64,000 nt of DNA from Candidatus Amunia macphersoniae. GTDB taxonomy: Bacteria; Chloroflexota; Dormibacteria; Aeolococcales; Aeolococcaceae. How positions within the stretch are numbered: the stretch's first letter is position 1; each line of letters begins with the position of its first letter. The stretch is from contig JAEKNN010000026.1 in assembly GCA_016464795.1 (NCBI GenBank), forward strand, positions 5,059 through 69,058. The letters are read 5' to 3'. Below are positions 26,278 through 46,610 of the stretch, piece after piece. A program made the position numbers and the translations under genes. Below the pieces are notes generated by a model that worked only from the letters and a program-made list of their open reading frames with translations, searched no databases and was not told the origin of the DNA.

Positions 26278-26327
26278 GGGGCGAGCATAGGACGGTCCGC
26301 GCAGCGACCGCGTTCTGCCACACCACA

Positions 26328-26349
26328 GGTTAATCGGTGCTTAACCAAC
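26328..26349 (+). promoter_or_regulatory. Candidate PHO box: tandem 11-bp units GGTTAATCGGT / GCTTAACCAAC ~100 bp upstream of pstS (and ~55 bp upstream of the divergent histidine kinase)
   Basis: Motif family G[GC]TTAA[GCT] / GTCAAG with 11-bp phasing recurs upstream of the phosphoesterase genes in this window (40062, 46593, 49040, 52362). Confidence 0.45.
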
Positions 26350-26444
26350 CCGAAAACAGTCGACAACGCTGGCTGCGCCAGCATGGCCGAAGTTCCACAG
26401 GGCCATGCAGGGTCCGCCGTAACCGCGTGCTGAGGAGAGGGAAG

Positions 26445-27362
26445 ATGGCTCGATCGCGAATCTATGGTGTCGGCGTCACCGTCGCCTCCATGCTGACACT
26501 CGCCGCGTGCGGCGACTCCACCAGCACGTCGAGCGGTGGTCCCGCCTCGCAGGCGGCTGTCGCCACCCCCACCCCGGTGGCCACCTGCGTGTCGGGCTCG
26601 GTCAGCGCGGACGGTTCGTCGGCCATCAAGGCGCTCATCCAGAAAGCCGCTGACAACTACCAGGCGAAGTGCTCGGGGGCGACGATCACGGTTGCGGCGA
26701 CCAACTCGTCCACCGGTGTCACCAAGGCATCCAGCGGGGCTGTCGACATCGGCGACAGTGACATCCCGGCGGGGCTGGTCCAGGGGGTCGACGCCAGCAC
26801 CATCGTCGATCATCCGGTGGCCATCGTTCTCTTCACGGTGGCGGTGAATCCCGCCGCCGGCGTCACCAACCTCTCCTCGCAGCAGCTCAAGGACATCTAC
26901 AGCGGCAAGGACACCAACTGGTCGCAGGTTGGTGGGGCGAGCCTGCCCATCTCCGTGTTCGAGCGCACCGCGGGATCAGGTACGCGATTCACATTCGACA
27001 AGGACATCATGCAGGGCGTCGACGAGACCGCCACCCCGGCGGCGGTCATCAACACCACCCAGTCTGTGGTGCAGAGCATGTCGACCACCCCAGGGGGTGT
27101 CGCCTACCTGTCCGCCTCGTCGGTGAGCAGCCCGTTGGTTGCGGTCAGCATCGACGGGACGCCGCCGAGCGGCGCCAACGTCGCCAGCGGCAAGTACCCA
27201 TTCTTCTCACATGAGCACTGCTTCACCAAGGCCCAGCCGAGCGTGCTCACACTGTCGTTCCTCCAGTACATCCAGAGCTCGACCTTCCAGACTGGCGACC
27301 TGACCACCCTGAAGTACCTCCCGCTGTCCACGACGACACGCAAGGCCGCCGTCGATCAGTAA
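26445..27362 (+). CDS. pstS: Phosphate ABC transporter substrate-binding lipoprotein
   Basis: RBS GGAGAGGGAAG + ATG; lipoprotein signal MLTLAACGDS; PBP-fold motifs ...SGSGTRF...; 305 aa. Confidence 0.9.
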   Translation: MARSRIYGVGVTVASMLTLAACGDSTSTSSGGPASQAAVATPTPVATCVSGSVSADGSSAIKALIQKAADNYQAKCSGATITVAATNSSTGVTKASSGAVDIGDSDIPAGLVQGVDASTIVDHPVAIVLFTVAVNPAAGVTNLSSQQLKDIYSGKDTNWSQVGGASLPISVFERTAGSGTRFTFDKDIMQGVDETATPAAVINTTQSVVQSMSTTPGGVAYLSASSVSSPLVAVSIDGTPPSGANVASGKYPFFSHEHCFTKAQPSVLTLSFLQYIQSSTFQTGDLTTLKYLPLSTTTRKAAVDQ

Positions 27363-27363
27363 C

Positions 27364-28341
27364 GTGCGCGCTGTGAGCACTGTTCCCAGCGCACTCGAGC
27401 CGGCGGCGCCACAATGGCGGCGCCGGCTTCGTGCGGAGCGAATCTCGCGCATCGGCTTCGCCGCAGCCGCCGGCCTCAGCCTGGTCGTGGTCGGATTGGT
27501 GATCCTCTTCCTGACCATCAATGCGTGGCCGGCATTCGTCCACATCGGGCTCGACCATTTCTTCGGATCGACGACCTGGGATCCGGAGGGGGCCAACCAC
27601 CACACCCAGAACCTTCAGCCTCTGCCCTTCTTCGGTTCGTTGACCCCGATCGCGGGCTCGGCGGTGGCGGTGATCCTGGCGCTTGTCATCGCCATCCCGG
27701 TGGGCCTGGCGCTGGCGATCATGATCGCCGAGACCAGCCGGCACGTCGGTGAGCGCGTGCTGCGGCCGGCGATCGAGCTGTTTGTCGGCGTGCCGTCGAT
27801 CGTCTACGGGTACGTGGGACTCGTCCTCCTGGTCCCGCAGCTGGAGAGATTTGCCCCGCCCGGGCAGAGCGGCCAGGGCTTCGGGGCGGCCGCTATCGTG
27901 CTCGGGGTCATGGTGGTGCCGACCATCGCCACCCTCAGCGCCGACGCTCTCCAGGCCGTGCCCAGCTCGCTGCGCGAGGGATCGATAGCGCTCGGTGCCA
28001 CGCCCTGGCAGACCCTGCGGCGGGTTCTCATCCCGGCGGCGCGCGCGGGGATCATCAGCGGCATCGTGCTCGGGCTGGCACGCGCCATGGGTGAGGCGCT
28101 CGCAGTGGCACTGGTGATCGGCGGGGTCGCCCGGCTGCCCGACCTCGCCGGAGGCCTGTCCTTCCTGCTCAAGCCGGGCATGACCATGACCACCACGATC
28201 ACTGACGGGATCAGCAACCTCGGAGCCAACCCCAAAGCGGAGGCGGCGAGGTACCTCCTGGCGCTGGTCCTGTTGGTGATCACGTTCGCGTGCGTCACGA
28301 CGGTGCGGGTGGTTCAGCGTCGCAGCGAGGTGATCACGTGA
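27364..28341 (+). CDS. pstC: Phosphate ABC transporter permease
   Basis: GTG start; multi-TM permease with EAA-like loop ...ALGATPWQTLRRVLIPAARAGIISG...; 325 aa. Confidence 0.9.
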   Translation: MRAVSTVPSALEPAAPQWRRRLRAERISRIGFAAAAGLSLVVVGLVILFLTINAWPAFVHIGLDHFFGSTTWDPEGANHHTQNLQPLPFFGSLTPIAGSAVAVILALVIAIPVGLALAIMIAETSRHVGERVLRPAIELFVGVPSIVYGYVGLVLLVPQLERFAPPGQSGQGFGAAAIVLGVMVVPTIATLSADALQAVPSSLREGSIALGATPWQTLRRVLIPAARAGIISGIVLGLARAMGEALAVALVIGGVARLPDLAGGLSFLLKPGMTMTTTITDGISNLGANPKAEAARYLLALVLLVITFACVTTVRVVQRRSEVIT

Positions 28342-29219
28342 ACAGGCGGGCCAGGGTCAACAATGCTCTCGCCTTCGGGCTGATCCGAGCCATCGCCATC
28401 GTCTTCCTGTTGCTGGTCGTCTATGTGCTCCTCTACACCGTGGTCCAGGGCTGGTCGGAGCTGACCCGCGGCGCCTTCTACACCAGCCCCCCGAGCACCG
28501 ATCACGCAGGCAGTGGCGCCGGTCCGCAGATCTTCAACACCTTCTATCTGCTCATCCTCACGGTGATCCTGACAGTGCCGTCAGGCCTCGCCGCGGGCAT
28601 CTACTTCGCGGAGTACGCCGGCACCGGGCGGTTGGTCAACGCGATCCGGCGTGCCACCGAGACTCTCGCGACGCTGCCATCGATCGTGGTGGGACTCTTT
28701 GGCTACGCCCTGTTCGTCCAGGCGACCGGCAGTCATCCCTCGCGGCTGGCTGCCTCCCTGGCACTCACAGTCATCGCGCTCCCGTATGCGGTCCGCATCA
28801 CCGAGGACGCACTGCGATCGTTGCCGACGACCTTGCGCGAATCCAGCCTGGCTCTCGGCGCCACCCGCTGGCAGACGATCACCCGGGTGTTGCTCCCGGC
28901 CGCGCTTCCCCAGCTGGTGACCGGTGTCATCCTGATCTCCGGCCGAGCCTTCGGCGAGGCCGCCGCGGTTCTCTTCACCGGCACCGTGGGCACGCCGACC
29001 GCGTACGCCAACTACAGTCTCAGCCCGTTCCTGCCCGGCGACAGCCTCGCTGTCAACCTCTACGTCTTCCGCAGCCAGGTCGAGCCAGGGACGGTTCCGG
29101 ACGCCGCAGCCTATGCTGACGGTGTGGCCGCCCTGCTGATCCTTCTGGTCTTGGTGTTCAACATCGCGGCCCGCTACGCTGCGCGGCATGCGGTGCGCCG
29201 TCTACAAGGAGCCATCTAG
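28338..29219 (+). CDS. pstA: Phosphate ABC transporter permease
   Basis: GTG overlapping pstC stop (GTGA); ...ALGATRWQTITRVLLPAALPQLVTG...; ~293 aa. Confidence 0.9.
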   Translation: MNRRARVNNALAFGLIRAIAIVFLLLVVYVLLYTVVQGWSELTRGAFYTSPPSTDHAGSGAGPQIFNTFYLLILTVILTVPSGLAAGIYFAEYAGTGRLVNAIRRATETLATLPSIVVGLFGYALFVQATGSHPSRLAASLALTVIALPYAVRITEDALRSLPTTLRESSLALGATRWQTITRVLLPAALPQLVTGVILISGRAFGEAAAVLFTGTVGTPTAYANYSLSPFLPGDSLAVNLYVFRSQVEPGTVPDAAAYADGVAALLILLVLVFNIAARYAARHAVRRLQGAI

Positions 29220-30056
29220 ATGAGCGCTGAGTTCCGTATCCAGGTGGCCCCCGAGGTGGTGGCGGCTGTGAACGGGGAGAAGCTGCCCGCCCCCGCCGTT
29301 GAGACACGCGGGCTCGACGCCTGGTACGGCGACTTCCAATCGCTTCGCAAGGTCGACTTCTCGGCGGCGAAAGGTCGCGTCACCGCGATCATCGGTCCGA
29401 GCGGCTGCGGCAAGAGCACCCTGCTGCGCGCGCTCAATCGCATGAACGACCTGGTCCCGGGATACCGCACCAGCGGCGAGATGATCCTCGAGGGGTCGCC
29501 GGCGCCAACCGATCCAGCTGGCGTGATCGCGCTGCGACGCCGGATGGGCATGCTCTTTCAGCGACCCAATCCGTTCCCGATGTCCGTCTTCGACAACGTC
29601 GCCTACGGGCTGCGCCTCGAGCGTCGCTGGAAGAAGCATGATCTGGACGAGCCGGTGGAGCGGGCGCTGACCCGAGCCGGCCTCTGGGAGGAGGTCAAGG
29701 ACCGCCTCAGCAGATCCGCCCTGGGCCTCTCAGGTGGCCAGCAGCAACGCCTGTGCCTGGCTCGCAGCCTGGCGGTCGACCCGCAGGTGATCCTCATGGA
29801 CGAACCCACCTCAGCGCTCGATCCCATTGCCACCCTCAGGGTGGAGGAGCTGATGCGTGAGTTCCGTGACGAGGTCACGATCATCATCGTCACTCACAAC
29901 ATGCAGCAGGCAGCCCGGGTCAGCGACGTGACCGCCTTCATGATGATGGGCGCCGGCAGGGCTGGCGAGCTGGTCGAGATCAACAGCACCATCGATCTCT
30001 TCAACAGGCCGAGTGATCGGCGCACCGAGGACTACATCACGGGCCGATTCGGTTGA
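29220..30056 (+). CDS. pstB: Phosphate ABC transporter ATP-binding protein
   Basis: Walker A GPSGCGKST, signature LSGGQQQRL, Walker B ILMDEPTSALD; 278 aa. Confidence 0.95.
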   Translation: MSAEFRIQVAPEVVAAVNGEKLPAPAVETRGLDAWYGDFQSLRKVDFSAAKGRVTAIIGPSGCGKSTLLRALNRMNDLVPGYRTSGEMILEGSPAPTDPAGVIALRRRMGMLFQRPNPFPMSVFDNVAYGLRLERRWKKHDLDEPVERALTRAGLWEEVKDRLSRSALGLSGGQQQRLCLARSLAVDPQVILMDEPTSALDPIATLRVEELMREFRDEVTIIIVTHNMQQAARVSDVTAFMMMGAGRAGELVEINSTIDLFNRPSDRRTEDYITGRFG

Positions 30057-30727
30057 TGGAGCCACTGGCGCACCCGCATCGTCCATCGTTCGAGAGCGAG
30101 CAGCGGCGGGTGCGGGACCTGGTTCTGGAGATGGGTGAGATGGTCGACGTGGCCATCGCCCGAGCCACCCGCGCGCTGGTCGACCGCGACGTGGCGCTGG
30201 CGAGCAGGGTGATCCGCGGTGACGACCTGGTCAACGCCAGGCAGGCCGACGTGCATGGCCACTGCCTGTCGGTGATCCTCACCCAGGCGCCGGTGGCCCG
30301 TGATCTCCGAGAGATCCTCGGCTTCCTGCACATGTCCGATGAGCTGGAGCGCATGGCCGACCATTGCGTCAACATCGCGCGCATCGCGCGCAACCTCGCC
30401 GACCTCCCGCCGCTGGGTGCTCCTGTGGATCTGCACATCCTCTCGCGCACCGTGGCCGAGCAGGTGCGCGACATGCTCAACGCGCTGGTGGCTCGCGACA
30501 TCGATCGTGCCCGCGAGATCGCCGCTCGAGACGACCGGGTCGACCGCATCTACCACCGTATTGTCGACGACATCCTGCAACTGATGGTGGGCGACAGCCG
30601 CAACGTCTACCCGGGAACCCAGCTGATCCTGGTGTCGATGAACCTCGAGCGCATCGCCGACAGGGTCACCAACCTGGCGGAGGACCTCGTCTTCCTCGAG
30701 ACCGGGGCGGTGGAGGAGCTGGGTTGA
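30053..30727 (+). CDS. phoU: Phosphate signalling complex protein PhoU
   Basis: Two PhoU repeats with conserved D/E...RIAD...N motifs (ELERMADHCVNIAR, LERIADRVTNLAED); 224 aa. Confidence 0.9.
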   Translation: MMEPLAHPHRPSFESEQRRVRDLVLEMGEMVDVAIARATRALVDRDVALASRVIRGDDLVNARQADVHGHCLSVILTQAPVARDLREILGFLHMSDELERMADHCVNIARIARNLADLPPLGAPVDLHILSRTVAEQVRDMLNALVARDIDRAREIAARDDRVDRIYHRIVDDILQLMVGDSRNVYPGTQLILVSMNLERIADRVTNLAEDLVFLETGAVEELG

Positions 30728-31485
30728 TGAGCAGCGCCCGCGGGCCCAAGCGGATCCTGGTCGTCGAGGATGAGGAGAACATCAGTCAGACCCTGCGCTA
30801 CAACCTCACTCGAGAGGGATACGAGGTGAGCCAGGCGGCCACGGGGACCCAGGCCCTCGAGCTGGCCCGGCAGCGTCATCCCGATCTGATCCTGCTCGAC
30901 CTGATGCTGCCCGAGATGAGCGGCCTCGAGGTGTGCAGGGTGCTCCGCGCCGAGATGAGCACCCCGATCCTCATGCTCACCGCCAAGGCCAGCGAGCTGG
31001 ACAAGGTGGTGGGACTGCAGGTCGGTGCCGATGACTACGTCACCAAGCCGTTCTCGCTCAACGAGCTGCTGGCTCGCGTCGCGGCCATGTTGCGCCGCGC
31101 GGAGCTCACCGGAGGCCAGCAGCACCGCCCCGGTGAGGTCGAGGACTTCGGCGGTTTCCGGCTGGATCGTGCGGCGCGCACAGTTCGCGTCGGAACCGAC
31201 GATGTGCATCTGTCCCCCAAGGAATTCGATCTGCTCTCGTTGCTGATGGCCAACGCCGGACGCGTTCTGTCACGGTCGACGATCATCCACCGCGTCTGGG
31301 GCAGCAAGTTCTTTGGCGATCACAAGACTGTCGACGTGCACATACGTTGGTTGCGCGAGAAGTTCGAGCACTTCGACACCCTGCCCTTCCGCATCACCAC
31401 CGTGTTCGGGGTTGGCTACCGGTTCGACAAGCTCGACGCCGAGATCCCGGTCTCGATCCTGAACGAGACCTCAACATCGGCTTAA
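30727..31485 (+). CDS. phoP: OmpR-family response regulator (PhoP/PhoB/RegX3-like)
   Basis: ATG overlaps phoU stop (TGATG); receiver RILVVEDEENI...DLILLDLMLP...LMLTAK, winged-helix C-terminus LSPKEFDLLSLLMANAGRVLSRSTI...VDVHIRWLR; ~252 aa. Confidence 0.9.
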   Translation: MSSARGPKRILVVEDEENISQTLRYNLTREGYEVSQAATGTQALELARQRHPDLILLDLMLPEMSGLEVCRVLRAEMSTPILMLTAKASELDKVVGLQVGADDYVTKPFSLNELLARVAAMLRRAELTGGQQHRPGEVEDFGGFRLDRAARTVRVGTDDVHLSPKEFDLLSLLMANAGRVLSRSTIIHRVWGSKFFGDHKTVDVHIRWLREKFEHFDTLPFRITTVFGVGYRFDKLDAEIPVSILNETSTSA

Positions 31486-31509
31486 CCAGGTCGCGTCTAG
31501 GCTGACCTC

Positions 31510-32508
31510 GTGGTCAGGTCCCCCGCCAACACCAGGCACCGGCCGGCTGTGGCCCGGGACCCTGCGGAGTCAGTCCGCGGCCACGCTCATGCGCCCCCGC
31601 AGGTGATCGGCCACGCCGGCCTCGCCATCCAGCGTCCGGGGGGCGTCCCCACGCGACGCCACCTCGATGAGCTGCTGGCCCTGGGAGTCGACCGCGTCGA
31701 GCTCGACGTGTGCACGAGCGCCGACGGCCACCTCGTTGTTCGCCACGACGCCTGCCTCGCCGACGGGCGCTTCGTGGCCGATCTCGACCTCGCCGACCTG
31801 CGCAGCGACGACCAATTCCAGCTGACGCTCGACGAGGTGTGTGAGCACCTCGAGGGTCGCATACCGATGCTGCTCGACCTCAAGATGGCGCACGCTGCCC
31901 AGGACCTGGGCGGTTGGTTCAACCGGCGCCGCGACCTCGAGATGTTCACTGTGTGCACCGAGAACCTGCCGTGGTTGCTGCAGCTGCGGTTTGCCGCGCC
32001 ACGGGTGGCCAGGTGGCCGTCCTTCCCCAACATCGGCGAGCGATCCAGCCACCACGTGCAGCAGGTCGTCGCCGGCCTGTGGCGGAGTCACGCGAGCATC
32101 AACGGTCTTCGCCGTGGCGTGTCGGACCTGCACGGCGCCGCCAGCCAGCTGCGCCATCATCCCCATGACAGCCTGGCCAGGCTGGGCGGCCTCCCGTGGC
32201 GGGAACGCCTGCCGCTCGAGCTCGCCCAGCCCTGCGAAGATCTCGCGGCCGAGGGCATCTGCGTCCAGAAGTGGCTCATCTCCGAACGCCTGGTGGAGGA
32301 GGCACACGGAGCCGGGCTGCATGTCAACGCCTGGACCATCAACAACACCGAGGTGGCCCATACTGTCGCCGCCGCCGGCGTCGACTCGATCACCACCGAT
32401 CGCGTCGCGGCCATCCAGCTGGCCCTGGGCATCGGCAAGCCGCCGCGATTGCCGGCCAGCGCTCGCGGCGGGCGGCTCAGGGTGGCGGCGCGTAGCGCGC
32501 CGAGCTGA
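31510..32508 (+). CDS. Glycerophosphodiester phosphodiesterase family protein (start may be GTG at 31603)
   Basis: GDPD motifs VIGHAGL, VDRVELDVCTSADGHLVVRHD, ...NAWTINN...; directly downstream of phoP. Confidence 0.75.
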   Translation: MVRSPANTRHRPAVARDPAESVRGHAHAPPQVIGHAGLAIQRPGGVPTRRHLDELLALGVDRVELDVCTSADGHLVVRHDACLADGRFVADLDLADLRSDDQFQLTLDEVCEHLEGRIPMLLDLKMAHAAQDLGGWFNRRRDLEMFTVCTENLPWLLQLRFAAPRVARWPSFPNIGERSSHHVQQVVAGLWRSHASINGLRRGVSDLHGAASQLRHHPHDSLARLGGLPWRERLPLELAQPCEDLAAEGICVQKWLISERLVEEAHGAGLHVNAWTINNTEVAHTVAAAGVDSITTDRVAAIQLALGIGKPPRLPASARGGRLRVAARSAPS

Positions 32509-32938
32509 CCACACCGGCGCTGAGCTCCAGGGTCCACGTGGATCCCTTCTCGGCATGTGGGGAAGACAGGCTGAGCCCCGACGCGATCAGCAGGCCCAGC
32601 AGGTCGGCGAGGATGTCGCCGTGGGTGCAGGCCACCACCGGAAAGAGCTGCTCTGCTCGCAGTCGGTCGAGCATTGGGGTGGCGCCGCCTCCCTCGTAGA
32701 GCTCGCTCAGGGTTGTGATCGCCAGCTGGTGAGCTCTCGCCAGCGGCAACACCGTGGCCACGCAGCGCAGCGATGGGCTGGAGTAGATGGCCGCAGGGGT
32801 CACCGTCAGCTGGGAGGGCAGCCGCTCCGCCTGCCCGCAGCCGCGGCCCGAGAGCGGACGGAGATCGTCGTCATGCGACCATCTGCCGGGGTCGCCGGCA
32901 TGAGCGTGGCGGACCACGTGGATCAGCTGCGCAGCCAT
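32477..32938 (-). CDS. Histidine phosphatase family protein (SixA-like phosphohistidine phosphatase); internal Met start
   Basis: RHG motif LIHVVRHAHAG at N-terminus; ~153 aa; overlaps CHAD gene end by 16 nt. Confidence 0.7.
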   Translation of the reverse strand: MAAQLIHVVRHAHAGDPGRWSHDDDLRPLSGRGCGQAERLPSQLTVTPAAIYSSPSLRCVATVLPLARAHQLAITTLSELYEGGGATPMLDRLRAEQLFPVVACTHGDILADLLGLLIASGLSLSSPHAEKGSTWTLELSAGVVSSARYAPPP

Positions 32939-34350
32939 CGCCACTGCCGGGGACGCGACGCCGCCCTCCATGCGTCAGGCCACCGCTCCGATGCGTGGCG
33001 CAGCCGGGCCAGCTCGAGCGCGGCCAGCTGGCCCGCCGCGAAGGCAACACCCGTGGTGGCCTCGGCCTGGCGCTGCAGCCACTCGCGTGTGACCACCGCG
33101 TCGTGCTGCTCGCCGAGAACTGTCTGGAGCTCGGCGACACGTGCCGCGGAGCTCGCCGCTGCCTCGCCGGCCTCCGGCACGCTGGCATCGGCGGCGTACC
33201 TCACCCGCTTGGCGAGGATCCTGATGCGGTGAAGCTGCTCGTCGGTGGGCGTCTCGTCCAGCGCTGCCACATACTGCCGCAGTCTCCGCCACCGTCTGGC
33301 TGCCAGCGGTGTCACCGAGGTGAGACCGTCGGCGCCGTCCGACCACCTCGGCTGCGTCACCGCGGCGATGGTGTCGTCGATCACGCCCAGGTACTCGGCG
33401 CGCGACAGCTCATCGAGGAGCTCGGTCCGCGCAGTGGCCAGGTGCGCGGCTGCGGTGTCGAGCAGTGGCATCGCCGACTCGCGATCACCGTCGGACAGGA
33501 GCGAGGTGAGATCGCTCAACCGGCCGCTCAGCACCTCCGCGTCGCGGACGGTGCCCAGACGGGCAGCGAACCCTCCGAGCCGTTCGCGCAGCGCGGCCGC
33601 CCAGTCACCATCGAGCAGGGGCGCGAACGTCTGCAGGTCGGAGCGGAGCCTGCGCAGGGCGACGCGCACCTTGCGCAGCGCGTCGGGCGAGCCGGCCCCA
33701 GCCAGCTCGCCGTCGAAGTGCAGCCACTGGATCATCGACAGCGTCGTGCTTCGGCTGAAGAGATCGCGAGGGCCTGTCGCCTTCCTGTCAGGCAGGCGAA
33801 GCCGCGGCGCGCGTACAAGGCCTGGGCGGAGGACCGCAAGCGTGGCGGCGTCACCCACGGCGACGCGAGCGAACAGCCTCGTGATCGGCGCCGCCTCATC
33901 GGAGGAATCAGCATCGGCGACGAGGATGCGACGAAGCCGCGGCGTCCAGGAGCTGGGACTGCCGTCGTCGACGCGCTCCTCGATGATCGTCACGGGGCGG
34001 GGGAGGCCGGAGCCGGAGACGGTGTGGGTGCGGCGCTGGACGGACACCTTCGCACGGGACGCCAGGGGGCGTCCACGCCTGTATCCCCGCGACCAGTCAG
34101 CCACCAGCTGCGCGTCCACGCTGCCGGGTGCGCTCCACTCGCGAACCGGCAGCTTGTGGTTGCCGAGGTTGTCGCGCCTCCAGCGCCAGCCGTCGCGGCG
34201 GCTGAAGGATAGCTCGGCGCCGGCGGCCGCCAGGCGACGGTCACCGGTGTCGAACAGCTCGAGCGTCCGGCGCGTCGGTGCGCTGATCTCGACGGTGAAC
34301 CCGTTGTCGGTCAGGTGCCGGGGGATGGACAGCGCCAGTGGGACGCGCAC
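32923..34350 (-). CDS. CHAD-domain protein (polyphosphate-granule-associated family), start placed at GTG just downstream of ppk stop
   Basis: C-terminal CHAD helices LRKVRVALRRLRSDLQTFAPLLDGDW...LHRIRILAKRVRYAAD; N-terminal ~230 aa may be a degenerate CYTH-like domain; upstream alternative starts would overlap ppk. Confidence 0.7.
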   Translation of the reverse strand: MRVPLALSIPRHLTDNGFTVEISAPTRRTLELFDTGDRRLAAAGAELSFSRRDGWRWRRDNLGNHKLPVREWSAPGSVDAQLVADWSRGYRRGRPLASRAKVSVQRRTHTVSGSGLPRPVTIIEERVDDGSPSSWTPRLRRILVADADSSDEAAPITRLFARVAVGDAATLAVLRPGLVRAPRLRLPDRKATGPRDLFSRSTTLSMIQWLHFDGELAGAGSPDALRKVRVALRRLRSDLQTFAPLLDGDWAAALRERLGGFAARLGTVRDAEVLSGRLSDLTSLLSDGDRESAMPLLDTAAAHLATARTELLDELSRAEYLGVIDDTIAAVTQPRWSDGADGLTSVTPLAARRWRRLRQYVAALDETPTDEQLHRIRILAKRVRYAADASVPEAGEAAASSAARVAELQTVLGEQHDAVVTREWLQRQAEATTGVAFAAGQLAALELARLRHASERWPDAWRAASRPRQWRWLRS

Positions 34351-34369
34351 CCGCTGGGTGGGGTCAGGC

Positions 34370-36469
34370 TCAGGCAACTCCTCGGTTGCGCCGCAGGGCA
34401 CCCTCCGCCAGCGCCTCCTGCGCGTTGACGCCCGTCGTGACCGGAACACGCGTCCAGCCGTGGCCGTCGAACTGCCATGCCAGGGCATCGTCGGTGAGCG
34501 AGAGCTCGATGATCTCATCGAGCCGGCCGCGCAACCCGGAGTCGGTGACCGGCACGGCAACCTCGACACGCCTGTCCAGATTGCGCGGCATCAGGTCGGC
34601 CGAGCTGATCAGGTAGTCAGCATCGGCTCCGATCCCGAAACGGTAGATCCGCGAATGCTCGAGGTAGCGTCCCACCAGTGAGCGGATGCGCAGGCGCTCG
34701 GGCGCGGCCGATGCGGCCGGGTTGAGCGCGCACATGCCACGCACGATCAGGTCGATCTCGGCTCCCGTCTCAGCAGCCTCGTAGAGCGCGTCGATGATCT
34801 CCGGATCGATCAGGCCGTTGAGCTTGAGGGCAATCCTGCCGCCGGGGCGTGCCTCGCGGTGGATCAGTTCGGTGAGCGCGCCCCGCAGACGTTGCGGTGC
34901 CACGATGATGCGTGAGTACTGGACGTCCCGGCTGTAGCCGGACAGTGCGTTGAAGAGCTCGCTCATGTCGGCACAGGTCTCAGCGTCGGACGTCAGCAGC
35001 GCGACATCCTCGTAGATGCGCGCTGTGTCAGGGTTGTAGTTCCCTGTCGAGACGTGGCAGTAGCGCGTGATCTGTCCGGCCTCGGTGCGCACCACCAGGG
35101 AAACCTTGGCGTGGGTCTTGAGGCCGACGATGCCGTAGATGACGTGCACTCCTGCCTGCTCGAGCGCTTGCGCCCAACTGATGTTCGCCTGCTCGTCGAA
35201 ACGCGCGGTCAGCTCCACCAGCGCCACCACCTGCTTGCCGGTTTCGGCGGCGCGGATCAGCGAGCGGATTATCGGACTGTTGGTGCCCGATGTTCGGTAG
35301 AGCGTCTGCTTGATCGCGAGCACTGAAGGATCGGATGCCGCCTGTTCGACAAACGCCACCGCCGACGCGTCGAAGTCCTCGTAGGGATGGTGGACGAGCA
35401 CGTCGGCGGCGCGCACCGCGGCGAAGATGTCGTACCCGCCGTCGTGCGGCAACAGCGCCGCCGGCACACTGGGAACCCATTGCTGATACTTCAGCTCGGG
35501 ACGGTCCAGGCCGGCCAGTTGGAAGAGCGCTGAGAGGTCGAGCGGGGCGTGCACCACATGGACATCCAGCTGATCCATCTCCAGCTCGCGGATGAGCAGG
35601 TCACGCACCTCGTCCGGCATGCGCTCATCGATCTCGAGGCGTACCACGAGCGGTGAGAGCCGGCGGCGCTTGAGGACATCACGAACCGCCTCGAGCAGGT
35701 CGTCCTCGTCACTGTCCAGCTGGAAGTCGGCACCCCGGGTGAGCCGAAACGGATGGTGGGTGATGATGTCCATCCCGGGGAACAGGGCATCGAGGTGGGC
35801 GCTGATCACCTGCTCGAGGGGGACGAAGCTGTTGCCCGCCGGCAGCGCCGCGAACCTCGGCAGCGCCGGCGGCACCTTGACCCTGGCCACCCGGTGCTCA
35901 CGGGTCAGCGGGTCGGCGACGACAACGGCCAGGTTGAGCGACATCGACGAGATGTATGGGAAGGGGTAGGCCGGGTCGACCGCCAGCGGTGTCAGCACCG
36001 GGAACAGTTGCAGCGCGAAGTAGGTGTCGAGGTGAGAGCGCGCCGCGTGGTCGAGCTCGTGGTAGTCGCAGACGCAGATGCCGGCGCCCTGGAGGGCGGG
36101 CGCCACGGAGCTGGCGTAGATGGCGTCCTGGTCTCGCGCGAACTGGGCTGTCCGCTCGCGAAACAGCTCGCGCTGTTCGAGTGGGGTCAGCCCGTCAGGA
36201 GAGCGGTCGCTGAGGCCGGTCTCAACGTTCTGGGCCAGCACCGCACCCCGAACCTGGAAGAATTCGTCGAGGTTGTGGGCGGAGATCGCCAGGAACCTCG
36301 CGCGCTCGAGGACGGGCACATCGCTGCTGCCGGCGCGTGCCAGGACGCGGCGATTGAAGTCCAGCCAGGATGCATCGCGGTTGAGGTAGCGGGGCTCAGA
36401 ATCCTCGCGCCGCGTCGACCTCTCCAGCTCCTCTTCGAACACGCGCGGGGCCTGCTGTCGAATAGCCAT
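34370..36469 (-). CDS. ppk: Polyphosphate kinase 1
   Basis: 699 aa; N-domain RYLNRDASWLDFNRRVL, PLD-like C-domains, ...THAKVSLVVR... (HxK); classic PPK1 length. Confidence 0.95.
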   Translation of the reverse strand: MAIRQQAPRVFEEELERSTRREDSEPRYLNRDASWLDFNRRVLARAGSSDVPVLERARFLAISAHNLDEFFQVRGAVLAQNVETGLSDRSPDGLTPLEQRELFRERTAQFARDQDAIYASSVAPALQGAGICVCDYHELDHAARSHLDTYFALQLFPVLTPLAVDPAYPFPYISSMSLNLAVVVADPLTREHRVARVKVPPALPRFAALPAGNSFVPLEQVISAHLDALFPGMDIITHHPFRLTRGADFQLDSDEDDLLEAVRDVLKRRRLSPLVVRLEIDERMPDEVRDLLIRELEMDQLDVHVVHAPLDLSALFQLAGLDRPELKYQQWVPSVPAALLPHDGGYDIFAAVRAADVLVHHPYEDFDASAVAFVEQAASDPSVLAIKQTLYRTSGTNSPIIRSLIRAAETGKQVVALVELTARFDEQANISWAQALEQAGVHVIYGIVGLKTHAKVSLVVRTEAGQITRYCHVSTGNYNPDTARIYEDVALLTSDAETCADMSELFNALSGYSRDVQYSRIIVAPQRLRGALTELIHREARPGGRIALKLNGLIDPEIIDALYEAAETGAEIDLIVRGMCALNPAASAAPERLRIRSLVGRYLEHSRIYRFGIGADADYLISSADLMPRNLDRRVEVAVPVTDSGLRGRLDEIIELSLTDDALAWQFDGHGWTRVPVTTGVNAQEALAEGALRRNRGVA

Positions 36470-36537
36470 GGCCGCCTATTGTGCCTCCCTGGCGTGAGGG
36501 TCGTCGCCCGTTGTGCGCTGCCTATACTCGCGTCGAT

Positions 36538-38073
36538 GTGAGCCCAGCACCGCGCGCCGTCGCCGACATCGGCTCGAACTCGGCGCGGCTGCTGCTGGTG
36601 CGCCCCACCGACCAGGGGCATCTCGATGTGCTGGTCGATGCGCGCGTGGCGTTGCGACTGGTGCGCGACCTCGACGCCAGCGGCCGTCTCACCCGAGTTG
36701 CTGTGCAGAGGACCGTTGAGACGCTGCACGCCTTCACAGTCATCGCCCGTCGCCACGGCGCGCGGAGCGTCAGTGCCGTGGCCACCTCGGCGATTCGCGA
36801 CGCCTCCAACCGGGAGAGCTTCGTGAGCGAGGTCCAGCGTCGCACCGGCATGACCATCACCGTGCTGAGCGGAGAGGAGGAGGCAAGGCTGGCGCTGGTG
36901 GGCGCGGTTTCGGCGCTTCCGGTCGAGAGCGGCGCGGTCATCGACCTCGGTGGCGGCAGCATGGAGGTGGCCACCTTCAGCCGCCGGCGCTTTCGTGCCG
37001 GCTTCACGCTCCCGTTGGGAGCGCTGCGGCTTGGTGATGCGTTTCTCAAGCATGACCCACCGCGATCTGACGAGCTTGCGGCCATGCGCGATCACGTGCG
37101 CACCGCTCTCGCCACCGTCGATGTCGCCGACCTCAGCGCCGCTGAGAGCCTGGTCGGAACCGGCGGGACGATTCGTGCGCTTGCCAAGGCAGCGCGGGGG
37201 CGCCGGCCGCCGGCTCTCAACCGGCTCCACGGGTACGAGCTGCGCCGGTCCGATGTGGACACGCTGGTGGATCGGCTGGCGAGGTTGCCGGCTGCGCGAC
37301 GCTCCTCGGTGGCCGGCATCAGTGGCACCCGCGCCGAATCCGTGCTCGGTGGGGCCCTGGTGGTGCAGGTGCTGATGGAGCTCGCGCAAGCGCCGACGAT
37401 CCTGGTGTCCGGATACGGCGTGCGCCAGGGCGTGATCCTCGATCAGCTCGACCTGTCGGTTCCACGTCCGCGCCAGGTGCGCGATGCCAGCGTGAGCGCC
37501 GTGCTCGGGCGTCTCCGCGGAGGCACCCCCGGTTCGCAGCGTCGTCGGCTGCTCCTCAGCGCGCTCGCTCCAGTCCTCAGCCCCACCTTGGACGTCGCCC
37601 TCCTCGACATGGCCGGTCACGCGGCCCGCCTGGTTGACGCCGGCGCTCATCTCGATCACTACGGCCGGTGGTCGGAGACGGCCAACCTGGTCACAACCGC
37701 CGACCTCGATGGCTTCACGCACTCCGAGCTCTCCTCCATCGCAGCCGTGCTCCTCTGCGCCGGCGAAGCGTCGATCCCGGCCCCATTGCGCCGCGAGAGC
37801 CGCACCGCCAGGGGTGCCCTGGAGCGCGCGGGTGTGCTTCTGGCCCTCGCGGACGACATCGACCGTCGACTCCCTCCCGGACGCGGCGCGGCCATCGGAG
37901 GGCTGGGGCGGGACGGTCGGCTCGACGTGGGCGGAATGCCGCCCATGCTGTTGCCCGCGTCGCTGTCTGAGCGCTGCCAGACCATCCTGCACAAGAACGT
38001 GCGCGAGCTGGTGGATGTCAGCCACCCCCGACCCCGCGCGCGGCGGCCGGAAGTGGCGGTCGAGTTCAAGTAG
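36538..38073 (+). CDS. ppx: Exopolyphosphatase / guanosine pentaphosphate phosphohydrolase (Ppx/GppA family)
   Basis: GTG start; AVADIGSNSARLLLV, ...IDLGGGSMEVA... ASKHA-fold motifs; -10-like TATACT only 9 bp upstream (possibly leaderless). Confidence 0.85.
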   Translation: MSPAPRAVADIGSNSARLLLVRPTDQGHLDVLVDARVALRLVRDLDASGRLTRVAVQRTVETLHAFTVIARRHGARSVSAVATSAIRDASNRESFVSEVQRRTGMTITVLSGEEEARLALVGAVSALPVESGAVIDLGGGSMEVATFSRRRFRAGFTLPLGALRLGDAFLKHDPPRSDELAAMRDHVRTALATVDVADLSAAESLVGTGGTIRALAKAARGRRPPALNRLHGYELRRSDVDTLVDRLARLPAARRSSVAGISGTRAESVLGGALVVQVLMELAQAPTILVSGYGVRQGVILDQLDLSVPRPRQVRDASVSAVLGRLRGGTPGSQRRRLLLSALAPVLSPTLDVALLDMAGHAARLVDAGAHLDHYGRWSETANLVTTADLDGFTHSELSSIAAVLLCAGEASIPAPLRRESRTARGALERAGVLLALADDIDRRLPPGRGAAIGGLGRDGRLDVGGMPPMLLPASLSERCQTILHKNVRELVDVSHPRPRARRPEVAVEFK

Positions 38074-38122
38074 CATGGCGCTCGCGCAGCCGGGTTGGTG
38101 ATCCACGATGAGGAGGTAGGTG

Positions 38123-38548
38123 ATGCCGAGCAAGTCTCCCAAAGGGCTGCAGAAGCGCCTGCAGAAGGTCGAGCAGGCGCAGGCCAGGCTCGGCGAGATC
38201 GCCAAGCGCATCAGCGTGCAGGCGTCAATCGTCGCGGACCTCGTGGCGCTGGTCAGCAGCGCGGCCGGCGAGAGCGCTGCACCTGCACGATCGTCGACCT
38301 CCAAGCGCACCAGCAAGCCGGTCGCCCGCACCACGGTCCGAGCCCAGACGGCTGCCGCGACGTCGCCCAAGGCCGCGGCCACACGACGCACGGCTGCTCC
38401 CGCGGCACGCAAGCGCGCGCCCAGCACGCGCAAGCCCGCGACGGCAGCAGCCGCTGCCGCACCGCGCACGTCGGCGCCCGCGGCACGCAAGCGTGCGCCC
38501 AGCACGCGCAAGGTGGCCACGGCACCACCCCCAGCCGACGCGATCTAA
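38123..38548 (+). CDS. Small basic protein: N-terminal coiled-coil, C-terminal Ala/Pro/Arg/Lys-rich low-complexity tail with 26-aa tandem repeat (PAARKRAPSTRK...)
   Basis: Strong SD AGGAGG 7 nt upstream of ATG; very high GC3; 78-bp-period DNA direct repeat (38399-38434 / 38477-38512); the alternative-frame 259-aa His/Arg-rich ORF 38095-38874 is rejected. Confidence 0.55.
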   Translation: MPSKSPKGLQKRLQKVEQAQARLGEIAKRISVQASIVADLVALVSSAAGESAAPARSSTSKRTSKPVARTTVRAQTAAATSPKAAATRRTAAPAARKRAPSTRKPATAAAAAAPRTSAPAARKRAPSTRKVATAPPPADAI

Positions 38549-39546
38549 GCGGACGCCCGCTCCGCGGCCAGAACGGCTCCACCGAGAGCACCGGAGAGGT
38601 CGCCGAGCCCCGCGGCCAGCACCGGCACGCTCTCGCGTCCATCGTGCAGGAGGTGTGGCTGCATCGAGCGGTGGACCCGGCGTGCAAACGGCTGACCGAG
38701 CCGGCTGCCCAGGCCTCCGCCGATGAGCACAGCGTCCACGTCCAGGATGTTGACCGCCGACGCCAGCACCGGACCGGCGGCACGCACGGCCTCGTTGATC
38801 AATTCGTTGGCGAGGCGATCGCCTTCGTCGAGCGCCTTGGCGATCACACCGGAGGTCAAGCGGGTGCGCCCTGACCTCTTCATCAGGGTGAAGAGGCTGC
38901 TCTTCTCGCCCTTCTCCACCCGTTCGCGCGCCCGACGCTCCATCGAGCCTCGGCCCGCGTATGCCTCGAGACACCCGCGGCGTCCGCACGAACACCGCCG
39001 CCCACCCGGAGCCGCACAAGCATGCCCGATCTCGCCGCAGGCGCTGAGACGGCCGCGTCGAATGACCCCATCGAGGAGCAGCGCCCCGCCGACACCGGTG
39101 CCGAACCACACGGCCAGCACGTCCCGGAAGGGCTGCGCAGCGCCGAGCCTGTGCTCACCCAGCAGCGCCACCCGGACGTCGTTGTCAACCGCCGCCGGGA
39201 CTCCGAGGTCCTTCTGGAGCTGTTCGCGCAGTGGGAAGCTCGCCGTCCAGCCGCGGATGTTCGGGCTCTTGGAGACGGCACCGGTTGCCTCGTCGACCTG
39301 ACCTGGGACACCGATGCCCAGCGCGGCGATCCGGCGGTGGGGTGACGCCTCGATGGCCTCGTCCACGACCGCCTTGATGGCCACAACGACCGCGGCAGGC
39401 CCGCCACGGCTCGGGGTTGCAGTCCGCGCTTGCGCTACCGGAGCGAAATCCGAACCGGTGATCACCACCTCGATCTTGGTGGCTCCGAGGTCGACGCCCG
39501 CGTAGGCAACTGCAGCTGCAGGACGGCGAGCTGGCACGGCCGTCAT
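38545..39546 (-). CDS. ROK-family glucokinase (candidate polyphosphate/ATP glucokinase given ppx/ppk neighbourhood)
   Basis: ATPase N-terminus AGVDLGATKIEVV, ROK zinc motif GHACAAPGGRRCSCGRRGCLEAYAG; 333 aa. Confidence 0.8.
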   Translation of the reverse strand: MTAVPARRPAAAVAYAGVDLGATKIEVVITGSDFAPVAQARTATPSRGGPAAVVVAIKAVVDEAIEASPHRRIAALGIGVPGQVDEATGAVSKSPNIRGWTASFPLREQLQKDLGVPAAVDNDVRVALLGEHRLGAAQPFRDVLAVWFGTGVGGALLLDGVIRRGRLSACGEIGHACAAPGGRRCSCGRRGCLEAYAGRGSMERRARERVEKGEKSSLFTLMKRSGRTRLTSGVIAKALDEGDRLANELINEAVRAAGPVLASAVNILDVDAVLIGGGLGSRLGQPFARRVHRSMQPHLLHDGRESVPVLAAGLGDLSGALGGAVLAAERASA

Positions 39547-39556
39547 TGTGACGCGG

Positions 39557-40042
39557 TCACCCCAGCGACAGCGTCTCCACGTGGTCGCGCTGGTCGAGCA
39601 CCGCCTCGAGCCGAGGTGTGACCCCGCTAATCAGCTCTCTGTCGTGGTCGTGGCTGAGCCTGAGCACCGCCTCGGACGGACGCACCCACGCGATCGCGTC
39701 GACCTCCTCGTTGGGCTCGAAGGTGCCGGTGACCCGGTTCATCACCCAGTACCTGACCAGCTTGGGCCGGTCACGGCGATCCACGTACTCGGTCACGCCA
39801 ACGGTGTCCTCGGCGATGCAGAAGAACCCGGTCTCCTCGCGCACCTCGCGCAGCGCTGCCGCCAGCAGCGTTTCGCTGCGCCGTTGCTTGCCTTTCGGGA
39901 AGGACCAGTCGGCATAGAGGGGTCGGTGGACGAGCACCACGCGGACGGCGTCGTCGGCTCCGCGACGGATGATCAGGCCGCCCGCCGCGCGGACAGCGAT
40001 CCGTAGGGCAACGTCGCATCTGGTGGCGTTGTCAGCGGTCAT
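39557..40042 (-). CDS. NUDIX hydrolase
   Basis: Nudix box ...GKQRRSETLLAAALREVREETGF...; 161 aa. Confidence 0.85.
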   Translation of the reverse strand: MTADNATRCDVALRIAVRAAGGLIIRRGADDAVRVVLVHRPLYADWSFPKGKQRRSETLLAAALREVREETGFFCIAEDTVGVTEYVDRRDRPKLVRYWVMNRVTGTFEPNEEVDAIAWVRPSEAVLRLSHDHDRELISGVTPRLEAVLDQRDHVETLSLG

Positions 40043-40061
40043 GACCGTGTCCGAGAACCTA

Positions 40062-40079
40062 GCCGCCGTCGGCTTAACC
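40062..40079. promoter_or_regulatory. Candidate PHO box: GCTTAAC-N4-GGTTAAG (11-bp phased, also a palindrome) between divergent NUDIX and propeller-phosphoesterase genes
   Basis: Same half-site family as upstream of pstS. Confidence 0.35.
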
Positions 40080-40412
40080 CGCGGTTAAGCGACAGCTATT
40101 GGCGGGGAGACATTCACGCCGAGGATAAGCGGATGTGTGGAAGGACACGGAGTGCGCGGGTTGCGACCTTCATCCAGGGCTACCTGATCGGCCGTCCTGA
40201 ACCGCCGGCCGTGATAGCGGAGACCTGGTTGTCAGGTCTGATCGGGGACCCACTTCGGCTGCCGTGGTCCCACACCTCGGGGCACCCGAGCAATAACGCA
40301 GGCATAACTCGACGGCAACCTGGCAGCGCGTAGCGTGGCCGTCGGTCGCCGGTGAGCGCGACCGCGGGCCGCAGCTGCGGCGGTCACAACCGAACGGTCG
40401 GGAGGGGAGGGG

Positions 40413-46592: not shown

Positions 46593-46610
46593 GGTAAAGA
46601 GCGCGTAAAG
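46593..46610. promoter_or_regulatory. Candidate PHO box variant: GGTAAAG-N4-CGTAAAG (11-bp phased) ~65-85 bp upstream of the frameshifted phospholipase C gene start (46527, minus strand)
   Basis: Direct repeat with same phasing and similar core as other sites. Confidence 0.3.

Follow-up and report, generated by a model that had tools for sequence, protein, structure and literature searches.

In Streptomyces, an operon composed of ppk, of pptA, which codes for a CHAD-domain protein, and of a nudix gene stands immediately upstream of pstSCAB and is PhoP-dependent; the genes that occur most often downstream of ppk are those of PPX/GppA, NUDIX, MutT and histidine-phosphatase proteins (PMC8003754). 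This operon, ppk-pptA-SLI_4382 of Streptomyces lividans/coelicolor, together with the pstSCAB genes beside it, is the closest described system to the cluster studied here, which is a variant of it: a group of seven genes around ppk1 and ppx, the predicted genes of polyphosphate (polyP) synthesis and degradation, at positions 32,477 to 40,042 of a stretch of 64,000 nucleotides from Candidatus Amunia macphersoniae (contig JAEKNN010000026.1). This whole stretch is called the window in what follows. The cluster contains ppk1, a gene for a protein with a TTM and a CHAD domain, a gene for a SixA-like histidine phosphatase, ppx, a gene for a small basic protein, and genes for a ROK sugar kinase and a NUDIX hydrolase.

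Other known systems share parts of this list. The mycobacterial protein MutT1 joins a Nudix domain to a histidine-phosphatase domain. Its C-terminal domain is structurally SixA-like and dephosphorylates sensor kinases, including SenX3 (PMC12407098), and its N-terminal Nudix domain dephosphorylates the phosphorylated form of NDK (PMC11784022). MutT1 also acts on 8-oxo-(d)GTP, which it hydrolyses to the diphosphate, and on diadenosine polyphosphates (PMC11784022). Neither ppk nor a genomic link to polyP is mentioned in PMC12407098 or PMC11784022. CHAD domains bind polyP, and often occur in fusions with TTMs or in proteins of polyP operons (10.1101/567040). Finally, AlgP of Pseudomonas aeruginosa is a histone-H1-like protein with basic repeats that is found on polyP granules (PMC9239181).

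We consider it probable that the seven genes form the core of a conserved phosphate-homeostasis island, organized in three transcription units: ppk1 with the TTM-CHAD and SixA-like genes, the divergent unit of ppx and the basic-protein gene, and the convergent unit of the NUDIX and ROK genes. In this proposal, PPK1 would build polyP from ATP and PPX would trim it. The TTM-CHAD protein, whose TTM part is rich in arginine and apparently non-catalytic, and the protein with the histone-H1-like basic tail would bind and organize polyP or its granule, by analogy with CHAD phosins and with AlgP. The SixA-like protein would be a phosphohistidine phosphatase and would reset a histidine-phosphorylated protein connected with phosphate status. 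The target would be the adjacent PhoR-like kinase, much as MutT1 acts through its C-terminal domain on SenX3 and other kinases, or the phosphohistidine intermediate of PPK1, or both. The NUDIX protein would either remove phosphoanhydride-linked nucleotides, such as 8-oxo-(d)GTP or ApnA, or dephosphorylate histidine-phosphorylated enzymes of the NDK type, as the N-terminal domain of MutT1 does. The NUDIX-ROK unit, pstS, the GDPD gene and a set of phosphoesterase genes would probably be induced under phosphate limitation by a PhoB-like regulator acting through TTAAC repeats, while ppk1 and ppx would be read from conserved, leaderless-looking promoters that lack such repeats.

The seven genes had been named by a sequence-only reading of the window, and all of them were recovered at or near the positions proposed there. 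The open reading frames (ORFs) were compared with Pfam, NCBIfam and PDB, and the GC content of third codon positions (GC3) was computed for each: it lies between 0.79 and 0.86 across all seven, the pattern of real genes, in a window whose GC is 66-71%. The gene ppk1 (34370-36469, minus strand) codes for the four PPK1 domains of Pfam (PP_kinase_N, PP_kinase, PP_kinase_C_1 and PP_kinase_C), and its product passes the equivalog cut-off of model TIGR03705 with 733 bits against 465.85. The product of ppx (36538-38073, plus strand, GTG start) scores 198 bits with the Ppx-GppA profile PF02541, whose gathering threshold is 27, and 263.9 with the exopolyphosphatase model TIGR03706, whose cut-off is 307; on these profile scores, its membership in the PPX/GppA family is certain, and within it the protein may be a PPX or a GppA. 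The CHAD, histidine-phosphatase and NUDIX names stood up in all three databases: on the minus strand, the TTM-CHAD gene (32923-34401) yields 144 bits with PF05235 (threshold 25.6); the SixA-like gene (32477-32938, with an alternative start at 32971), last of the ppk1 operon, 37.9 bits with His_Phos_1, PF00300 (threshold 21.7); and the NUDIX gene (39557-40042) 67 bits with PF00293 (threshold 21.1). The identity of every gene is demonstrated by sequence, profile and structure evidence, for ppx and ROK at the level of the family.

Two junctions of the ppk1 operon deserve a closer look. The gap of 20 bp first proposed between ppk1 and the CHAD gene is probably an overlap of 32 nucleotides: the CHAD start is most likely the GTG at 34401, since the Dormibacteraeota protein P0121, a 492-amino-acid NCBI entry from a metagenome-assembled genome (MAG) that is 100% identical to the CHAD protein, starts there, and since the residues upstream of 34350 are conserved in CHAD homologs. 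The junction of -16 bp between the CHAD and SixA-like genes is right if the latter starts at Met12 (32938), a start favored by the length of the SixA-like homologs, mostly 152-154 amino acids. These overlaps point to co-transcription and coupled translation of the unit.

The best NCBIfam model is the same for two proteins of the cluster, namely the MutT1 model NF052459, and the matched parts are complementary: the NUDIX protein covers its positions 1-123 with 98.6 bits, and the SixA-like protein its positions 132-285 with 63.6 bits. Neither reaches the equivalog cut-off of 475 bits. The structures agree, the best PDB match of the NUDIX protein being MutT1 5gg5 at residues 63-173, and those of the SixA-like protein MutT1 9cxx and 5gg5 at residues 178-339. 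Both proteins keep their signatures: the Nudix box is intact in the translation, which reads G-KQRRS-E-TLLAAAL-RE-V-R-EE-T-G-F against GX5EX7REUXEEXGU, and in the SixA-like family R10, H11, R27, R58, H106, G107 and D108 do not vary among 29 members drawn from four phyla. The two genes are separate, about 6.6 kb apart. Sequence, profile and structure evidence together demonstrate that one product is homologous to the first domain of MutT1 and the other to the second; the pair is not a MutT1. The initial suggestion that M. tuberculosis has, next to ppk1, a fusion of the same two activities, encoded as separate genes in the window, is therefore borne out: PPK-1 is Rv2984 and MutT1 is Rv2985, two consecutive locus tags, and NF052459 spans both domains. 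No SixA model appeared among the NCBIfam matches of the protein at E <= 0.01, and a search of PDB sequences with the same threshold did not bring up E. coli SixA; some database records of its homologs carry the name "SixA phosphatase family".

Which of the two states, fused or separate, is the usual one? A search of 1.84 billion representative proteins with the SixA-like sequence gave 827 relatives at E <= 1e-10. Among the best 150 of them, most are stand-alone proteins of 146-170 amino acids, and about 13 have 260-330 amino acids with the SixA-like match in the C-terminal half; five of the seven long relatives examined combine NUDIX and His_Phos_1 domains. Judged by the relative abundance of these architectures, the domains usually occur as proteins of their own, and the MutT1 fusion is the less frequent form. 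It is thus better to view MutT1 as a fusion than the window locus as a split.

Gene order was compared by tblastn of the window proteins against 35 ppk1 loci, designated by the letter L and a number, and one more distant locus, L036, was inspected as well. For the SixA-like, CHAD and NUDIX proteins, the homologs are all from MAGs of Candidatus Dormibacterota, as are the closest ppk1 loci, whose ppk1 genes are about 80% identical. Together with the identity of P0121, this places the window in Dormibacterota and leads us to reject an actinobacterial origin, which a GC content of 67-71% might suggest. With divergence marked by <>, the order in these genomes is NUDIX-ROK-basic-ppx<>ppk1-CHAD-SixA, followed by GDPD, the response regulator, phoU and pstBACS, and then by the histidine kinase. 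Among the Dormibacterota loci on contigs that are long enough for each count, ppx and ppk1 diverge in 10 of 10, the CHAD gene comes after ppk1 in all 10, the SixA-like gene comes after the CHAD gene in 8 of 8, ROK is on the far side of ppx in 9 of 9, NUDIX precedes ROK in 5 of 7, and the GDPD-regulator-phoU-pst side is found beside the SixA-like gene in 7 of 8. The order proposed to be meaningful is thus conserved in relatives, and its recurrence across these loci argues that the arrangement is not a product of chance. At locus L036, where the SixA-like protein is 58% identical, the core ROK-ppx<>ppk1-CHAD-SixA is kept and Tad pilus genes follow: the core is thus more stable than its link with pst.

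Outside Dormibacterota, parts of the cluster recur in other combinations. A Chloroflexi locus (L033) has ppx<>ppk1-CHAD-SixA. Three Myxococcota loci (L010, L014 and L015) have ppk1-SixA-ppx, without NUDIX and with two-component genes on both sides; in L013 and L014, pstCAB-phoU lies upstream of ppk1. In Acidimicrobiia/Actinomycetota, loci L012 and L037 carry ppk1, NUDIX and SixA as separate genes. At locus L017, ppk1 is followed by a MutT1-like fusion of NUDIX and His_Phos domains. In three contigs of Acidimicrobiia-type MAGs (L018, 9731-12478; L019, 1944-4433; L035, 9995-12478), PPK1 and NUDIX form a single ORF of about 830 amino acids, a fusion confirmed by Pfam for two of the three, followed by a separate SixA-like gene with an overlap of 4 nucleotides. 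Linkage of ppk1 with NUDIX, SixA-like genes, or both recurs in four phyla, fusions included. The literature searches made here offered nothing specific on a PPK1-Nudix fusion, or on ppk1 and mutT1 together, beyond a one-sentence remark in PMC8003754.

One further fusion was set aside. Protein P0425, encoded at 31-1017 of locus L038, joins the C-terminal half of CHAD to a SixA-like His_Phos_1 domain; it is known from one metagenomic contig of 2 kb, its CHAD domain is truncated, and it is anecdotal. It may be an artefact, produced by a frameshift where the CHAD and SixA genes overlap.

What would the two MutT1-type proteins do in such a cluster? PPK1 can produce nucleoside tetraphosphates, and there is the possibility that the NUDIX and SixA-like proteins are a nucleotide-cleaning pair that takes terminal phosphates off small molecules only, and acts on no protein phosphohistidine. 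The substrates would then be 8-oxo-(d)GTP, diadenosine polyphosphates, and nucleoside tetra- or oligophosphates from side reactions of PPK1. This alternative, which we hold to be doubtful though far from negligible, has several facts behind it. The known hydrolysis of 8-oxo-(d)GTP and diadenosine polyphosphates by MutT1 (PMC11784022) is of this type, the ppk-linked nudix of Streptomyces is annotated as resembling Ap6A hydrolases (PMC8003754), Ap4A hydrolases (Ndx1, 3i7u) are among the PDB matches of the NUDIX protein, and a PPK1-NUDIX fusion would place a clean-up enzyme at the very source of the by-products. However, the SixA-like protein is homologous to a domain whose phosphohistidine-phosphatase activity on sensor kinases has been demonstrated (PMC12407098), the MutT1 literature covered cites no small-molecule substrate for that C-terminal domain, and even the Nudix domain of MutT1 dephosphorylates a protein (PMC11784022).

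The second gene of the ppk1 unit codes for a protein with two domains, a degenerate CYTH/TTM domain at about amino acids 13-205 and a CHAD domain at about 206-492; the sequence-only reading had named CHAD alone. Pfam CYTH has no match in the sequence at E <= 0.01, and the CYTH fold was recovered through distant homologs and structure prediction. The distant homologs, 33-35% identical over the full length, carry both PF01928 and PF05235. An AlphaFold2 model built from 76 sequences has a pLDDT of 94.2, with residues 17-162 mostly in beta-strands, and its top Foldseek match is the full-length E. coli protein YgiF (5a60), followed by PptA (6rn5), the Chlorobium protein CtCHAD (6qv7) and thiamine triphosphatases. 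For the TTM fold, Foldseek gives a probability of 1.0 with YgiF 5a60, thiamine triphosphatases and SaTTM; for the CHAD fold, the target-normalized TM-scores against PptA 6rn5 and CtCHAD 6qv7/6qva are 0.77-0.82.

The fold is kept and the catalytic residues are lost. We aligned the CYTH region of 39 Dormibacterota-type proteins with that of 37 CYTH-CHAD proteins. The motif ExExK is RxRxP in all 39 Dormibacterota-type members. The acidic positions E138, E158, E160 and E162, present in 32-35 of the 37 CYTH-CHAD proteins, are in the 39 replaced by T138, by R or H at 158, by variable residues at 160, and by V, T or A at 162; the arginines of the CYTH motif LRxR are replaced by serines. The TTM part has an isoelectric point (pI) of 11.1 and contains 31 arginines. 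Sequence, profile and structure evidence thus establish a two-domain architecture like that of YgiF and the loss of catalytic TTM residues. Since ExExK and several other acidic tunnel residues are replaced, hydrolytic activity is unlikely: to judge from its residues, the TTM domain is probably not an enzyme. We infer a non-catalytic tunnel, predicted to bind polyanions, and by analogy with known CHAD proteins predict that the TTM-CHAD protein is a polyP-granule protein, or phosin.

The other candidate granule protein is the product of the gene at 38123-38548 (plus strand), a basic protein of 141 amino acids with a pI of 12. It has a conserved helical N-terminus and a basic tail rich in Ala, Arg, Lys, Pro and Thr; in the tail, a tandem duplication of 78 bp (38372-38524) yields two copies of a 26-amino-acid repeat. 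It has no Pfam or NCBIfam match. Its orthologs in L001, L003, L005 and L008 share the N-terminus MPKS..LLKRLQKIE.A..RLGEI..RI.AQA, followed by variable AKR-rich tails, and in other genomes the orthologs sit between ppx and ROK. With these positions and a GC3 of 0.83, it is a real gene.

There is also a bolder reading, which we judge unlikely and put forward tentatively. The MutT1-type Nudix and SixA-like modules would ancestrally be a control pair for polyP synthesis rather than nucleotide sanitizers, and the TTM-CHAD protein would be a pseudo-enzyme acting as a polyP clamp. Dephosphorylation of the PPK1 phosphohistidine, of a Pho sensor kinase, or of both, would then couple polyP synthesis to phosphate signaling. 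The idea comes from the ppk1 linkage in four phyla, from the PPK1-NUDIX and NUDIX-histidine-phosphatase fusions, and from the protein-phosphatase activities reported for both domains of MutT1. Phosphohistidine regulation of PPK1 or of a Pho kinase by MutT1-type modules is, in itself, plausible.

We now turn to the genes on the SixA side of the cluster and to the promoters. The flanking pst, phoU, regulator and GDPD genes that the sequence-only reading had listed were found again with Pfam and NCBIfam profiles. An operon at 26445..31485 on the plus strand contains pstS, pstC, pstA, pstB, phoU and a response-regulator gene, with the domains PBP_like_2, BPD_transp_1 (twice), ABC_tran, PhoU, and Response_reg with Trans_reg_C. 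PhoU reaches 173.7 bits with TIGR02135, whose cut-off is 130. The response regulator, of the OmpR/PhoB type, scores equally on the PhoB and YycF models, both times under the cut-off, and its ATG at 30727 overlaps the stop codon of phoU (TGATG, 30725-30729), so that its translation would be coupled to that of pstSCAB-phoU. The partner kinase of the regulator is encoded divergently, on the opposite side of the pst operon: it is a PhoR-like sensor histidine kinase (25216..26277, minus strand; HisKA and HATPase_c), divergent from pstS and syntenic across the Dormibacterota loci. No N-terminal membrane part is obvious in this kinase, and its best NCBIfam models are PnpS, with 274 bits, and phoR_proteo, with 264 bits, both scores being under the cut-off. 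Between the operon and the SixA-like gene lies the GDPD gene (31510-32508, plus strand, GTG start, 61 bits with Pfam GDPD).

The control region between the divergent genes ppk1 and ppx (36470..36537) is a spacer of about 68 bp with two conserved hexamers: CACAAT (36478-36483, minus strand), 8 nucleotides before the ATG of ppk1, and TATACT (36523-36528), 9 nucleotides before the GTG of ppx. All that nine Dormibacterota loci have in common here is the two hexamers, each at a constant distance from its start codon, the spacer between them being variable. This fits leaderless or near-leaderless transcripts, in agreement with the short or absent leader suspected for ppx. Comparable -10-like boxes are TATGCT, 6 nucleotides before the GTG start of the kinase gene (26278-26292), and TAGGCT, 6 nucleotides before that of GDPD (31498-31509). 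Such hexamers, 6-9 nucleotides before the starts of ppk1, ppx, the PhoR-like kinase gene and GDPD, are conserved across species, and their positions suggest that leaderless mRNAs are widespread in the lineage. The gene pstS differs in this respect, its ATG at 26445 being preceded by a clear Shine-Dalgarno sequence (GGAGAGGG).

A second kind of signal precedes other genes of the window. Upstream of pstS, putative PHO boxes (26330..26384, plus strand) are formed by TTAAT, TTAAC, GAAAA and ACAAC with a period of 11 bp, then 11 nucleotides and CAGCAT; the element is conserved in L001, L002, L004 and L006. The putative GDPD promoter (31460-31503, plus strand) has TGAAC, TCAAC and TTAAC in phase, then 11 nucleotides and TAGGCT, and is conserved in L001, L003, L004 and L011. 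A putative PHO-type promoter of the NUDIX-ROK unit (40056..40099, minus strand) has ATAGC, TTAAC and TTAAG with a period of 11 bp, then 11 nucleotides, TAGGTT, 13 nucleotides and the ATG; it is conserved in L001, L002 and L028, and weaker in L005. In L003, which has no NUDIX gene, a repeat-type promoter is kept directly before ROK (about 4100-4232); in L006, which has neither NUDIX nor GDPD, ROK has a leaderless-type start with CACAAT (about 6900-6940). The common layout is two to four phased TNAAC units with a period of 11 bp, 11 nucleotides, and a hexamer like TAnnnT. A scan for the two-unit pattern with N6 spacing and at most one mismatch gave 8 matches in the window, where 0.04 would be expected (the N7 spacing gave 0 matches), all upstream of phosphate-related genes: pstS, GDPD, NUDIX and two genes of the PF04185 phosphoesterase family. 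Two more phosphoesterase genes have, upstream, related sites that differ by two mismatches, and the candidate PHO boxes before these four PF04185 genes lie at 40293-40336, 46594-46609, 49030-49056 and 52363-52378. A strict scan of the composite layout gave 4 matches against 0.09 expected, those of GDPD and NUDIX-ROK among them. We propose the TTAAC direct repeats as a candidate PHO box for Dormibacterota; the layout being classic for promoters activated by PhoB or PhoP, the NUDIX-ROK unit is predicted to belong to the Pho regulon.

The island is also larger than first thought. That a contiguous phosphate supercluster surrounds ppk1 is confirmed, but its extent, put at about 15 kb, is rather from about 25.2 to 52.4 kb of the window, since it includes five phosphoesterase genes with a PF04185 domain, out to about 52 kb: 40413-43517, 45421-46527, 46759-48948, 49537-51150 and 51134-52315. 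The fourth of these paralogues (49537-51150) resembles a phosphocholine-specific phospholipase C, and a gene of the Na+/Ca2+ exchanger family (43532-44515) stands amid them; a tie with, for instance, divalent cations and polyP is conceivable. With the phosphoesterases of 40413-43517 and 45421-46527 as queries, no match was found beside NUDIX in other Dormibacterota loci. Scans of the whole window (1-64000) with Rfam, at gathering thresholds, and for tRNAs gave no matches.

The ROK gene (38545-39546, minus strand), second of the NUDIX-ROK operon, had been read as a candidate polyP-dependent glucokinase (PPGK), an enzyme in which polyP would replace ATP when phosphate or energy is scarce. Several facts speak for this: ROK is the neighbor of ppx in 9 of 9 Dormibacterota loci, the PHO-type promoter stands before NUDIX-ROK and, in L003, before ROK alone, and the known PPGKs do belong to the ROK family. 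The protein itself tells otherwise. Its scores are 196 bits with PF00480 (threshold 22.9) and 180.4 with the ROK_glcA_fam model TIGR00744 (cut-off 260.35), while the PPGK equivalog model NF045942 yields 36.2 bits against 250, over residues 17-162 only. In PDB, its best matches, 2qm1, 3vgk and 3vov, are ATP-glucokinases; at E <= 1e-10, the matches include no PPGK structure. A zinc-binding motif CxCGxxGC is typical of ATP-dependent ROK kinases and repressors, and the translation contains it, as CSCGRRGCLE. By these matches, the protein is a member of the ROK sugar-kinase family that resembles ATP-glucokinases, and we regard a polyP-glucokinase as quite improbable. The conserved place of ROK in the cluster nevertheless argues for a phosphate-related role.

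A number of observations weigh against the proposal that the cluster is the core of a phosphate-homeostasis island with the roles given above. The ppk1/ppx spacer contains no TTAAC or PHO-type repeats, so that the operon that bears the SixA-like gene is not predicted to be under Pho control. The C-terminal domain of MutT1 acts on several kinases, which implies no specificity for PhoR. Moreover, the second catalytic histidine is invariant in the stand-alone family (CTHGD), where mycobacterial MutT1 has a glutamine (CTQG), and the stand-alone family reads RHA where MutT1 reads RHG: from these motifs, the catalytic mechanism or the substrate may differ. The basic tail is of low complexity, and its likeness to AlgP is compositional only. 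In the more distant lineage of L036, the pst genes do not adjoin the core, and the interval between ppx and ROK, which in the window holds the basic-protein gene, has no called gene. Finally, NUDIX is absent in 2 of 7 Dormibacterota loci (L003 and L006), and deletion of the nudix gene of Streptomyces had no obvious phenotype (PMC8003754). These last two points, along with the fairly close relationship of the Dormibacterota loci, which makes shared order alone weak evidence, and the standard ATP-glucokinase look of ROK, would also suit a view in which the SixA-like, NUDIX, ROK and basic proteins are functionally unrelated neighbors in an inherited gene order, NUDIX being a general 8-oxo-GTP sanitizer and ROK an ordinary ATP-glucokinase, a view that is very improbable given the ppk1-NUDIX/SixA-like linkage in four phyla with varied arrangements and gene fusions, the conserved repeat promoter that NUDIX-ROK shares with pstS, GDPD and the phosphoesterase genes, and the core ROK-ppx<>ppk1-CHAD-SixA kept in different surroundings at 58% SixA-like identity.

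The reading of the locus as the core of a phosphate-homeostasis island matters because polyP metabolism is hardly described in Dormibacterota, bacteria that are uncultured and dominant in soil: in a literature search, the name of the phylum and polyphosphate came together in one paper, where each is touched on only in passing, and we found no description of this cluster in the group. For this lineage, the locus provides a compact and conserved parts list: besides a kinase and a phosphatase, it contains two proteins that are candidates for the granule, a pair of MutT1-type modules and a candidate PHO box. Four things are added to known systems: a TTM domain that has degenerated, a predicted PHO box with the set of genes that carry it, evidence that the MutT1 domains are widely encoded by separate genes with linkage to ppk1, and the PPK1-NUDIX fusions in Acidimicrobiia. 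The TTM domain would be a case in which the fold of an enzyme has come to serve for binding. That the domains of MutT1 occur as separate genes linked to ppk1, and are sometimes fused to PPK1, suggests that the phosphohistidine-phosphatase activities of MutT1 belong to the control of phosphate and polyP; the substrates that this implies, phosphorylated PPK1 and phosphorylated PhoR/SenX3, are directly testable.

Set beside the Streptomyces operon, the locus likewise shows a ppk gene followed by a CHAD gene whose start overlaps the end of ppk and whose product has about 460-490 amino acids; in the window, the CHAD start at 34401 is to be compared with the ppk1 end at 34370, and the pst operon is within 3 kb. 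A MutT-like NUDIX gene in the neighborhood, adjacent pstSCAB genes and a link to a PhoR/PhoP-type system are also shared. The differences are as clear. The third gene of the operon codes here for a SixA-like phosphatase and not for a NUDIX protein, which is encoded 3 kb away, in an operon of its own with the ROK kinase; ppx and the gene for the basic-tail protein are divergent from ppk1; and GDPD, the regulator gene and phoU stand between the ppk1 operon and pst. Unlike the PhoP-dependent ppk of Streptomyces, ppk1 has here, in silico, a promoter without PHO-type repeats, and may be regulated by another route; the host belongs to a different phylum.

With mycobacterial MutT1 (Rv2985; 5gg5, 9cxx), the locus shares the linkage to ppk1 and both domains, the NUDIX protein corresponding to the N-terminal one and the SixA-like protein to the C-terminal one. 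Unlike in MutT1, they come here from separate genes, which belong to different operons and flank ppk1/ppx, and the phosphatase motifs are RHAHAG and CTHGD instead of RHGTAG and CTQG. The TTM-CHAD protein has the TTM/CYTH and CHAD architecture of the E. coli tripolyphosphatase YgiF (5a60), but ExExK and several other acidic tunnel residues are here replaced, mostly by Arg, Thr or His. The small basic protein recalls AlgP by its size, by a long and strongly basic repeat tail rich in Ala, Lys, Pro and Arg, and by its polyP context, a likeness of composition; unlike AlgP, its N-terminal helical domain has no family match. As in the ppk-ppx pair of E. coli, ppk1 and ppx are neighbors, although they are divergent here and not in tandem. 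And, like E. coli SixA, the SixA-like protein is a histidine phosphatase of about 150 amino acids built on the RH...H catalytic core.

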